In this document: one piece after another, positions 4,983 through 58,004 of the stretch
How positions within the stretch are numbered: position 1 is the first letter of the stretch
How the letters are laid out: each line of letters begins with the position of its first letter
Assembly (NCBI RefSeq): GCF_045037415.1
Contig: NZ_CP173438.1
Origin: Escherichia coli
GTDB lineage: Bacteria; Pseudomonadota; Gammaproteobacteria; Enterobacterales; Enterobacteriaceae
Reading direction: 5' to 3' (one strand)
DNA: 64,000 nt
Notes under the pieces: model-generated
What the model saw: the letters and a program-made list of their open reading frames with translations, nothing else
Database searches by the model: none
What the model was told of the DNA's origin: nothing
Translations under genes and position numbers: made by a program

Positions 4983-5305
4983 AATTTTTCCAACGCTTCC
5001 GAGAGAGCACGGTTATCGAGGTCGGCAACCCCTTTTTTCGCCACCACCACGAAATCCATAGCCGGGAGTTCATGTTGGCGCAGACGGAAGCTTTCACGCG
5101 TCAGACGTTTAATCCGATTGCGTTCATGGGCGCGTCGAACGTTTTTCTTGGCGACTGTAAGACCGATACGGGGATGCCCCAGCGAATTCAGGCGGCCGAG
5201 AATAGTAATTTGCGGCGTGCCAGCCCGTTGTGGCTGCTGGAAGACGAATGTGAATTGACTGGGAGTTAACAAGCGTAACTCCCTGGGAAATGCGAGCTTA
5301 ACCAC
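4946..5305 (-). CDS. rnpA: RNase P protein component
   Basis: 119-aa basic ORF between rpmH and yidD; classical rpmH-rnpA-yidD-yidC arrangement. Confidence 0.9.
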
Positions 5306-5321
5306 TCAGGGGTTAGCTTTA

Positions 5322-5474
<153 letters not shown>

Positions 5475-5818
5475 CTAAACTTGAATAAATTCAATGGCTT
5501 TATTGGATATCCGCCGAAAAATGAAACGATGGACACCGAAGCCATGGGTGATTAAAGAGGCCGGATTGTAATAATTGTACACTCCGGAGTCAATTCTCTT
5601 TCCTTATTTACCGCGCTTTTCCGCACCTTTTCGCGGGGAAAACGTACGGCCTCACACCAGTGAAAACCAGCATGGCGCGCCGGGTGGAGGATTATACGGG
5701 CTGACGGGTAAAGCGCAAGGATCGTCCTGGATCTTTATTAGATCGATTAAGCCATTTTTTGTCTATGGTCATTAAATTTTCCAATATGCGGCGTAAATCG
5801 TGCCCGGCCTGCGGCAGG

Positions 5819-5945
5819 ATCGTTTACACTTAGCGAGTTCTGGATCATCCTGTGGATAAATCGGGAAAATCTGTGAGAAACAGAAGATCTCTTGCGCAGT
5901 TTAGGCTATGATCCGCGGTCCCGATCGTTTTGCAGGATCTTGATC
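5819..5945. promoter_or_regulatory. dnaA promoter region: GATC cluster and DnaA box
   Basis: At least seven GATC sites in about 130 bp, and TGTGGATAA (complement of the TTATCCACA DnaA box) at 5851-5859, between divergent rpmH and dnaA. Confidence 0.6.
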
Positions 5946-6068
5946 GGGCATATAACCGCAGACAGCGGTTCGTGCGTCACCCTCATGCAGGGTCTTTTCG
6001 ACGTACGTCAACAATCATGAATGTTTCAGCCTTAGTCATTATCGACTTTTGTTCGAGTGGAGTCCGCC

Positions 6069-7472
6069 GTGTCACTTTCGCTTTGGCAGCAGTGTCTTGC
6101 CCGATTGCAGGATGAGTTACCAGCCACAGAATTCAGTATGTGGATACGCCCATTGCAGGCGGAACTGAGCGATAACACGCTGGCCCTGTACGCGCCAAAC
6201 CGTTTTGTCCTCGATTGGGTACGGGACAAGTACCTTAATAATATCAATGGACTGCTAACCAGTTTCTGCGGAGCGGATGCCCCACAGCTGCGTTTTGAAG
6301 TCGGCACCAAACCGGTGACGCAAACGCCACAAGCGGCAGTGACGAGCAACGTCGCGGCCCCTGCACAGGTGGCGCAAACGCAGCCGCAACGTGCTGCGCC
6401 TTCTACGCGCTCGGGTTGGGATAACGTCCCGGCTCCGGCAGAACCGACCTATCGTTCTAACGTAAACGTCAAACACACGTTTGATAACTTCGTTGAAGGT
6501 AAATCTAACCAACTGGCGCGCGCGGCGGCTCGCCAGGTGGCAGATAACCCTGGCGGTGCTTATAACCCGTTGTTCCTTTATGGCGGCACGGGTTTGGGTA
6601 AAACTCACCTGCTGCATGCGGTGGGTAACGGCATTATGGCGCGCAAGCCGAATGCCAAAGTGGTTTATATGCACTCCGAGCGCTTTGTTCAGGACATGGT
6701 TAAAGCCCTGCAAAACAACGCGATCGAAGAGTTTAAACGCTACTACCGTTCCGTAGATGCACTGCTGATCGACGATATTCAGTTTTTTGCTAATAAAGAA
6801 CGATCTCAGGAAGAGTTTTTCCACACCTTCAACGCCCTGCTGGAAGGTAATCAACAGATCATTCTCACCTCCGATCGCTATCCGAAAGAGATCAACGGCG
6901 TTGAGGATCGTTTGAAATCCCGCTTCGGCTGGGGACTGACTGTGGCGATCGAACCGCCAGAGCTGGAAACCCGCGTGGCGATCCTGATGAAAAAGGCCGA
7001 CGAAAACGACATTCGTTTGCCGGGCGAAGTGGCGTTCTTTATCGCCAAGCGTCTACGATCTAACGTACGTGAGTTGGAAGGCGCGCTGAACCGCGTCATT
7101 GCCAACGCCAACTTTACCGGACGGGCGATCACCATCGACTTCGTGCGTGAGGCGCTGCGCGACTTGCTGGCATTGCAGGAAAAACTGGTCACCATCGACA
7201 ATATTCAGAAGACGGTGGCGGAGTACTACAAGATCAAAGTCGCGGATCTCCTTTCCAAGCGTCGATCCCGCTCGGTGGCCCGTCCGCGCCAGATGGCGAT
7301 GGCGCTGGCGAAAGAGCTGACTAACCACAGTCTGCCGGAGATTGGCGATGCCTTTGGTGGTCGTGACCACACGACGGTGCTTCATGCCTGCCGGAAGATC
7401 GAGCAGTTGCGTGAAGAGAGCCACGATATCAAAGAAGATTTTTCTAATTTAATCAGAACATTGTCATCGTAA
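6069..7472 (+). CDS. dnaA: chromosomal replication initiator DnaA
   Basis: ORF track protein recognised as DnaA; start set at GTG 6069 ([14 protein letters not shown]...) rather than the upstream track start. Confidence 0.97.
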
Positions 7473-57119: not shown

Positions 57120-58004
57120 TCAGAACAGACGATCCCACAGTGTGACCAGCAAGTGGATAATGCGGTCCCGGGCCTTACGCAGAAGCTGTAACATCCAGGC
57201 CGGAAAGCTGAATTGGGCAACGGCAGCGTCAAAGCTTTTCCCGATGGCGTCACCAAAAGTTTGTTGTGCGTGTTTCCGGGCCTGTTCAGAGCGGTTTTCC
57301 CCCCGGATATGTGAATAAACTGCGCTGGTTGCCTGTGGTGGCAGTGCGTGGATCATCAGCGACACCAGTGCCGGAAGATTCCAGCCGACAGGTGCGGCAA
57401 CGGAGAGTACCGGAAATGATGAAGGGAACAGGGTTGCCACCCGGGCTGTTACTGTTGCCAGTGAGAGTTCCTGCTGACGGGACGGGCATTTTTCTGTGTC
57501 GTTCCATTCTTCAGCAGGAAACACGCGATCGGCATGGCTGAGAACAAACAGAAAACGCGAGGGATCTGCACCTTCATTCAGTAAAAACTGATGCATGGCA
57601 ATATCGGCAGCATACGCACGTTCATCAGCCCGCAGGATCCAGATAATCAGATCCAGTTCCGGCAGTAACTGACGATAAAGCTCCCGGTATTCCTGATCAT
57701 GCTGCGGTGTCTCACCAATGCCGGGCATATCGACCAGCGTCATTCTGCGTTCACCGAGCTGCAGGGTAAGACGATGAGCCTGGCGGGTGCAGCCGTTCAG
57801 GGGATGCGTGGCGCAGATACGGGACTGAAAAATGGCATTACACAGACTGCTTTTGCCGGTGCCGGATTTACCCATAATGCCAATTACGGGCTCGTAATGA
57901 ATAACACCGTGGAGATGTTCAAGGATTTTCTGGCGAATTTCTTCAGGAAGAAACGTCAGATATGATTTTACTTGTGCAGAGAGGGAAGAATGGCTGAATG
58001 ACAT
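57120..58004 (-). CDS. GTPase of the YfjP/YeeP/YkfA family
   Basis: P-loop GIMGKSGTGKSS and DxxG (DMPG) motifs; first gene of the minus-strand CP4-like block. Confidence 0.8.
   Translation of the reverse strand: MSFSHSSLSAQVKSYLTFLPEEIRQKILEHLHGVIHYEPVIGIMGKSGTGKSSLCNAIFQSRICATHPLNGCTRQAHRLTLQLGERRMTLVDMPGIGETPQHDQEYRELYRQLLPELDLIIWILRADERAYAADIAMHQFLLNEGADPSRFLFVLSHADRVFPAEEWNDTEKCPSRQQELSLATVTARVATLFPSSFPVLSVAAPVGWNLPALVSLMIHALPPQATSAVYSHIRGENRSEQARKHAQQTFGDAIGKSFDAAVAQFSFPAWMLQLLRKARDRIIHLLVTLWDRLF

Follow-up and report, generated by a model that had tools for sequence, protein, structure and literature searches.

A GATC-rich dnaA promoter region in a common clinical Escherichia coli lineage matches its K-12 counterpart and carries a strain-variable tenth GATC

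Introduction

Why would some 130 bp in front of a gene hold seven or more copies of the same four bases? In the 64,000-nucleotide stretch of Escherichia coli DNA analysed here (the window), a cluster of GATC sites accompanied by a consensus DnaA box lies upstream of dnaA, and a sequence-only reading had taken it for the autoregulated, SeqA-sequestered dnaA promoter. Is this the control region already known from K-12, and does what was learned there hold for the strain at hand?

The K-12 dnaA region is described as containing '9 GATC sites within 225 bp', including sites in the -10 and -35 hexamers of p2, where methylation leads to two-fold p2 activity; p2 has about three times the strength of p1, and CCGCGG is found just upstream of its +1 (PMC5835720). 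A consensus DnaA box between the promoters is essential for autoregulation and weaker sites need DnaA-ATP (PMC5835720), with DnaA binding and repression reported at both promoters (PMC5835720, PMC8203912) and AGATCT named as a DnaA-ATP box (PMC8203912). SeqA-dependent sequestration lasts about one fifth of a doubling time after replication (PMC5835720), and prolonged SeqA-dependent hemimethylation was reported by Campbell & Kleckner (1990) and Lu et al. (1994), both cited in PMC5835720 and PMC13337833; the mechanism of autoregulation and sequestration is also described in PMC13337833 and PMC5145175.

Results

The cluster lies in the 606-bp spacer between the divergent genes rpmH and dnaA (Table 1). 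In the list of open reading frames rnpA, yidD and yidC precede rpmH, dnaN and recF come after dnaA, and the gene order around the spacer agrees with the annotation of MG1655. Of 5426 complete E. coli genomes, 5424 contain the spacer, with an identity of 95-100%; the median genome has one copy per chromosome, and there are at most two matched places. Against MG1655 the alignment runs ungapped from end to end with 600 of 613 positions identical (98%), leaving 13 substitutions, three of which (5807-5810) lie on the upstream side of the putative p1 -10; K-12 coordinates are obtained as 3889798 minus the window position. The stretch 5848-5985 is 100% identical, and everything from box 1 through +65 of p2 is unchanged. 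Over its first 24 kb, in turn, the window shows 100% identity with many clinical isolates, strains 81009 and AR_0055 among them, so that it belongs to a common clinical lineage of E. coli rather than to K-12.

We are therefore almost certain that this is the already known E. coli dnaA regulatory region, with tandem promoters p1 and p2 directed rightwards into dnaA, and we found no sequence evidence that contradicts the identification. The comparison with K-12 dnaAp1/p2 that the earlier reading had pointed to thus comes out in its favour, in the 600 identical positions as in the fully identical core, and its proposal of an autoregulated, SeqA-sequestered promoter is further supported by the gene context and by the presence of all nine K-12 GATCs and the DnaA box. 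Because 5848-5985 is identical, results obtained in K-12 on dnaAp1/p2, autorepression, Dam methylation and SeqA sequestration should carry over, and protein binding, methylation kinetics and promoter activity would be expected here, by orthology, to be those seen in K-12 experiments. The reading also valued the locus as an anchor, and rightly so: dnaA is on the plus strand and oriC lies beyond the left end of the window.

Table 1. Coordinates of features in and around the rpmH-dnaA spacer (window positions; a dot marks features given no strand).
Feature	Position	Strand	Basis or remark
rpmH (ribosomal protein L34), divergent neighbour bounding the spacer	5322-5462	-	ORF list and K-12 annotation mapped by alignment
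rpmH promoter-like site TTGACT-17-TACAAT	5565-5593	-	consensus scan, 10/12 matches
small ORF ysdD (26 aa, b4757), overlaps upstream GATC triplet	5692-5772	-	K-12 annotation mapped
upstream GATC triplet 5720, 5730, 5741	5720-5744	.	member of the classical 9-site cluster, outside the interval first noted
GATC immediately upstream of inferred p1 -10	5818-5821	.	kept in 41% of species
inferred dnaAp1 -10 TACACT	5825-5830	+	conserved GTTTACACTTA block
tenth GATC, strain-variable, 4 bp upstream of box 1	5843-5846	.	K-12 alignment, allele counts
DnaA box 1, perfect consensus TTATCCACA	5851-5859	-	only perfect copy in 64 kb
conserved CTGTGAGAAA block	5871-5880	-	CTGTG 93-100% conserved
AGATCT, ATP-DnaA 6-mer, includes p2 -35 GATC (5886)	5885-5890	.	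sequence and PMC8203912
dnaAp2 -10 TATGAT, with GATC at 5910	5907-5912	+	PMC5835720; 98-100% conserved
CCGCGG 'Travers box', directly after p2 -10	5913-5918	+	PMC5835720; 98-100% conserved
three p2-leader GATCs 5923, 5936, 5942, the sites altered in m3SeqA	5923-5945	.	bioRxiv 10.1101/2023.03.30.533363
dnaA CDS, GTG start at 6069, 467 aa	6069-7472	+	sequence, ORF list, K-12 annotation
second GATC cluster, inside dnaA, 14 sites	6722-7267	.	GATC listing

How large is the cluster, and could it be an accident? GATC sites near dnaA start at 5720, 5730, 5741, 5818, 5843, 5886, 5910, 5923, 5936 and 5942, which comprise the nine of K-12 and a tenth. Taken whole, the cluster packs 10 GATCs into 226 bp (5720-5945), a density some 12-14 times the average of the window, and it ranks first for GATC density in the 64 kb at both the 128-bp and the 226-bp scale. 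Seven or more sites in about 130 bp had been claimed at the outset, and seven are indeed counted in 5818-5945 (128 bp). The interval given for them captured the cluster, but its start at 5819 cuts the first GATC by one base, a trivial shift that leaves six complete sites in 5819-5945; likewise the seven sites stand, but three upstream GATCs of the same cluster had been omitted, and K-12 lacks the one at 5843.

A chance or compositional effect without function would be in keeping with the window at large, where GATC is not over-represented (245 sites, 3.83 per kb, versus 245.8 in dinucleotide shuffles), but the same figure means that the excess at the dnaA promoter is local. In 128 bp seven sites are observed where about 0.49 are expected; a Poisson model gives at least seven a probability of 9e-7 at any one position, or about 4e-4 when corrected for all positions, and when the 245 sites were placed at random only 0.3% of placements yielded any 128-bp stretch with at least seven. 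Counting all 10 GATCs over 226 bp lowers the probability to about 8e-6 after correction. Nor does the spacer have an unusual composition, at 47.5% GC. This statistical excess is a direct result of the sequence analysis, as is the identity to K-12.

The sites are spaced 10, 11, 77, 25, 43, 24, 13, 13 and 6 bp apart across the cluster, in keeping with a SeqA-sequestered locus, where at least two close GATCs lie within about three helical turns (PMC5145175). [quoted passage not shown]

Conservation across Enterobacterales speaks further to the chance explanation. A degenerate pattern for the DnaA N-terminus, applied to species-representative genomes, retrieved 120 Enterobacterales loci; since the pattern was set inside the coding region, the promoter itself does not bias the sample. 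TGTGGATAA is perfect upstream of dnaA in 111 of these 120 loci, and served to anchor a MAFFT alignment of 100 Enterobacterales species, in which the flanks of box 1, the anchor itself, are about 95-100% conserved. Directly observed in this alignment, the GATCs of the p2 -35 (5886) and -10 (5910) are each kept in 97% of the 100 species, those of the upstream triplet in 58% (5720), 90% (5730) and 85% (5741), and the others in 63% (5936), 54% (5923), 41% (5818), 15% (5843) and 12% (5942), against a median retention of 15% for other 4-mers of the region. The triplet is thus better conserved than most of the GATCs in the interval first noted. Among 89 species with sufficient flank, the equivalent 233 bp hold a median of 8 GATCs where about one is expected, an 8.4-fold excess, and the 60 columns that vary among 15 Escherichia haplotypes all lie outside the nine shared GATCs. 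With the excess recurring in so many species and single sites kept in up to 97% of them, a cluster arisen by chance and without function is vanishingly unlikely; the pattern indicates that the GATC cluster is under long-term constraint, in line with its accepted function.

The upstream triplet calls for an explanation of its own, because it overlaps an annotated small reading frame. Its three sites are 10 and 11 bp apart, about one helical turn, and lie about 100 bp from p1. Sitting within ysdD and closer to the rpmH promoter side of the spacer, they might be conserved for YsdD coding or for rpmH regulation, outside the dnaA sequestration cluster. The reading frame itself fares poorly: an ORF at this place is intact in 15 of 100 Enterobacterales species, one E. 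coli carries an internal stop, and 60 of the 85 species with no intact ysdD keep at least three GATCs there (46 have three, 13 four and one five). We accordingly rejected coding for YsdD as the reason why the triplet is kept. The three sites are moreover included among the classical nine GATCs of the dnaA promoter (PMC5835720), and we consider the explanation by ysdD or rpmH very unlikely as a whole, though the triplet may have some part in rpmH control. The comparison across species indicates that what is conserved at 5720-5744 is a DNA element and not the ysdD reading frame. The YsdD protein encoded in the window differs from that of K-12 at two residues (N6K, H23R), and conserved residues of the peptide may merely mirror the conserved DNA; a full-text literature search for ysdD returned unrelated papers only.

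Where, then, do the promoters lie? A sigma-70 consensus scan of 5300-6200 picked up a single site, on the rpmH side, and detected neither p1 nor p2. We did not accept this miss as evidence against them, because both are known to be weak consensus matches, and their positions accordingly rest on literature and conservation. To place the dnaAp1 -10 we took p1 to lie about 80 bp upstream of p2, as in K-12; transcription from p1 would then start at about 5837, and p2 transcription probably starts at about 5919-5921. The arrangement of GATCs at p2 is the one in the literature, with sites in the -35 (5886) and the -10 (5910) followed by 5923, 5936 and 5942 downstream: a single-cell study counts five p2 GATCs, two in the hexamers and three downstream of the start, and its m3SeqA mutant, in which the three downstream sites are mutated, shifts the cell-cycle phase of p2 activity (bioRxiv 10.1101/2023.03.30.533363). 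On the other side of the spacer, the strong sigma-70-like site on the minus strand at 5565-5593 is presumably an rpmH promoter, pointing toward rpmH.

Within the p2 leader, an inverted repeat, CCCGATCG ... TGATCGGG at 5920-5948, is made of two of the leader GATCs and would give an 8-bp hairpin at the extreme 5' end of the p2 transcript. The p2 5'UTR folds no better than shuffled sequences (z = -1.0), with no sign of an RNA element, and an Rfam scan of 5200-6300 returned nothing but a meaningless viral match (E = 0.83).

The consensus DnaA box that had been noted next to the GATCs is present: the minus strand reads TTATCCACA at a place between the putative start of p1 and the p2 -35 (5884-5889). 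As a lone 9-mer it is not significant, the relaxed pattern TTATNCACA having two matches in the window where 2.3 are expected, and it takes its meaning from position and conservation. The sole other match to TTATNCACA in the window is TTATTCACA at 57310-57318 on the minus strand. A relaxed scan yielded, besides box 1, only TGATCCAGA (5839-5847) and TTATCGACT (6039-6047) within two mismatches. The K-12 dnaA promoter reportedly has a weaker DnaA box 2, as well as boxes a, b and c, by the account of Speck et al. in 1999, and the conserved CTGTGAGAAA block is a candidate for such a box 2 here.

One may ask whether the GATCs are kept for SeqA at all, or mainly as parts of the promoters and of DnaA-ATP sites, in p2 strength and in AGATCT, with sequestration secondary. 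The two best-conserved sites are precisely those of the p2 -35, which lies in AGATCT, and of the -10 (97% each); methylation doubles p2 activity (PMC5835720), and initiation synchrony stays intact after promoter GATCs are removed (PMC5145175). Yet AGATCT is the context of one of the ten sites, on which ground we rejected the notion that AGATCT boxes for DnaA-ATP account for the GATCs as a by-product, and eight of the ten lie outside the p2 hexamers. The triplet, about 100 bp away from p1, is 58-90% conserved with helical-turn spacing, and the m3SeqA mutant changes the cell-cycle phase of p2 activity.

A further point against the promoter-element account comes from within dnaA, where an excess of GATC cannot be promoter-related. 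The dnaA coding sequence holds 15 sites (10.7 per kb), compared with 3.6 per kb in dnaN and 4.7 per kb in recF, and 14 of them form the second cluster. Synonymous-codon shuffles of 6722-7267, which preserve the protein and its codon usage, gave 6.1 +/- 1.8 GATCs with a maximum of 12 in 5000, so that the excess running into the coding sequence is more than the protein requires; SeqA binding within the dnaA gene has been mentioned (bioRxiv 10.1101/2023.03.30.533363). Weighing both sides, we judge it quite unlikely that the GATCs serve mainly as promoter and DnaA-ATP elements, and retain the reading of a SeqA-sequestered, autoregulated promoter.

The tenth GATC is what sets the window apart from K-12 most visibly. 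It arises from three adjacent substitutions, TCA at 5845-5847 where K-12 has AAG (GGATCATCC in the window, GGAAAGTCC in K-12), which complete a GATC at 5843 and also bring the 9-mer on the minus strand at 5839-5847, TGATCCAGA, to two mismatches from the DnaA box, versus three in K-12. Counted from the putative p1 start, the variant would lie at about +6 to +10. Run over complete E. coli genomes, a 61-base probe gave exact matches to the window allele in 1455 and to that of K-12 in 3401. Some 555-560 others, the bulk of what is left, are K-12-like with one further change, and possible intermediates or other types number at most 17 among about 5,400 genomes. The TCA allele is thus present in about 27% of complete E. 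coli genomes. Its carriers include O157:H7, with an otherwise K-12-like spacer, the lineage of the window, an APEC O2:K1:H4 strain and, on another background, APEC37. TCA is found on at least four flanking haplotypes and AAG on mixed backgrounds too, which indicates that recombination has shuffled the site.

Beyond E. coli, AAG is found in E. albertii and a divergent Escherichia (L115), and Salmonella arizonae has GGGAAGTCC, the K-12 state. An identical CTGGATCATCCTGTGGATAA is present in Citrobacter werkmanii, C. youngae and two further Citrobacter species (L063, L072), and in Enterobacter cloacae a GATC is found in the register of 5843. A GATC lies within about 15 bp of box 1 in 74 of 111 species, and the other 37 have none, as in K-12. 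An upstream position prevails in the Enterobacteriaceae genera sampled; Yersinia, Serratia, Erwinia, Pantoea, Pectobacterium and relatives have the site 4 bp downstream of box 1 instead (TGTGGATAAAAAGGATC; among others L010, L014, L021 and L030-L034). The alternation of upstream and downstream sites looks like positional turnover of a flanking Dam site.

Where the TCA allele came from admits several accounts: it may stem from a multi-nucleotide mutation, from import from another genus or from an old polymorphism. Its pattern across species could reflect selection for competition between SeqA and DnaA at box 1; the neighbours of 5843 are 25 and 43 bp away, and by the in-vitro rule neither distance is clearly favourable to SeqA pairing. 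The proposition that this natural variation in the dnaA control region is functional is speculative, and we hold it to be unlikely on the present evidence. In the literature available for searching, no paper connected the dnaA promoter with strain variation, and the AAG/TCA polymorphism is perhaps undescribed.

Discussion

The answer to the opening question is largely a familiar one. Reading the K-12 model onto this locus, DnaA would occupy the box at 5851-5859 between p1 and p2, and DnaA-ATP would spread from there to weaker neighbouring sites, including the AGATCT at 5885-5890, so that both promoters would be repressed, which is autoregulation. The ten GATCs would be Dam sites that become hemimethylated on passage of the fork, about one minute after initiation; SeqA, bound to close hemimethylated GATCs, would then exclude Dam and silence the promoters for about a fifth of a generation. 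As a result, no new initiator would be made right after initiation, and full methylation of the p2 -35 and -10 GATCs would in turn lift p2 activity about two-fold.

How much the cluster matters to the cell is less straightforward. Initiation synchrony survives the removal of several promoter GATCs (Wilkinson et al. 2006, cited in PMC5145175), and in a 2025 dam-deletion study dnaA mRNA was nearly unchanged (log2FC -0.10) and promoter occupancy unchanged. We take both as caveats on the importance of the cluster. The conservation of the sites nevertheless argues against neutrality, despite the reported removal of sites with no loss of synchrony.

What, then, does the locus teach? The biology is of textbook level, and the finding is valuable mainly as an anchor for E. 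coli identity and orientation, which had been recognised correctly from the bare sequence. Of all this, only the common three-base allele is mildly new; its state is shared with Citrobacter and Enterobacter and absent from K-12. K-12 is in this respect not fully representative: an additional Dam site next to box 1 is found in about a quarter of sequenced E. coli and in many related genera. If TCA were a functional variant after all, K-12, the basis of all experiments, would be without a site that many relatives carry, and TCA strains might silence dnaA for a different time or repress p1 to a different degree. The triplet, in turn, is among the best-conserved parts of the cluster, whatever ORF has been annotated over it. 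The site missing from K-12, the conserved triplet and the intragenic excess could each guide the design of promoter mutants in work on dnaA sequestration.

Among known systems, K-12 dnaAp1/p2 (Hansen et al. 1982; Campbell & Kleckner 1990; Speck et al. 1999; reviewed in PMC5835720) is the ortholog, 98% identical over 613 bp, with nine GATCs, box 1, AGATCT, the p2 -10 and CCGCGG at equal positions; it differs by the 13 substitutions, notably the change from AAG to TCA that brings the tenth GATC and a closer box-like 9-mer. The dnaA promoters of Citrobacter and Enterobacter share the GATC 4 bp upstream of box 1, although these are other genera in which the remaining spacer has diverged. The mioC promoter, next to oriC, is similar in that one consensus and several weaker DnaA boxes repress it when DnaA-ATP is high, but it is not sequestered (PMC5835720), whereas the dnaA promoter has both repression and sequestration. 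Finally, oriC likewise interleaves dense Dam sites, at about ten times random density, with DnaA boxes and is held hemimethylated by SeqA (PMC5835720, PMC13337833). By contrast, oriC serves as an origin, has a DNA-unwinding element and lies off the window, and the dnaA element is a promoter outside oriC; oriC is also sequestered for longer, about one third of a doubling time versus about one fifth for dnaA (PMC5835720).
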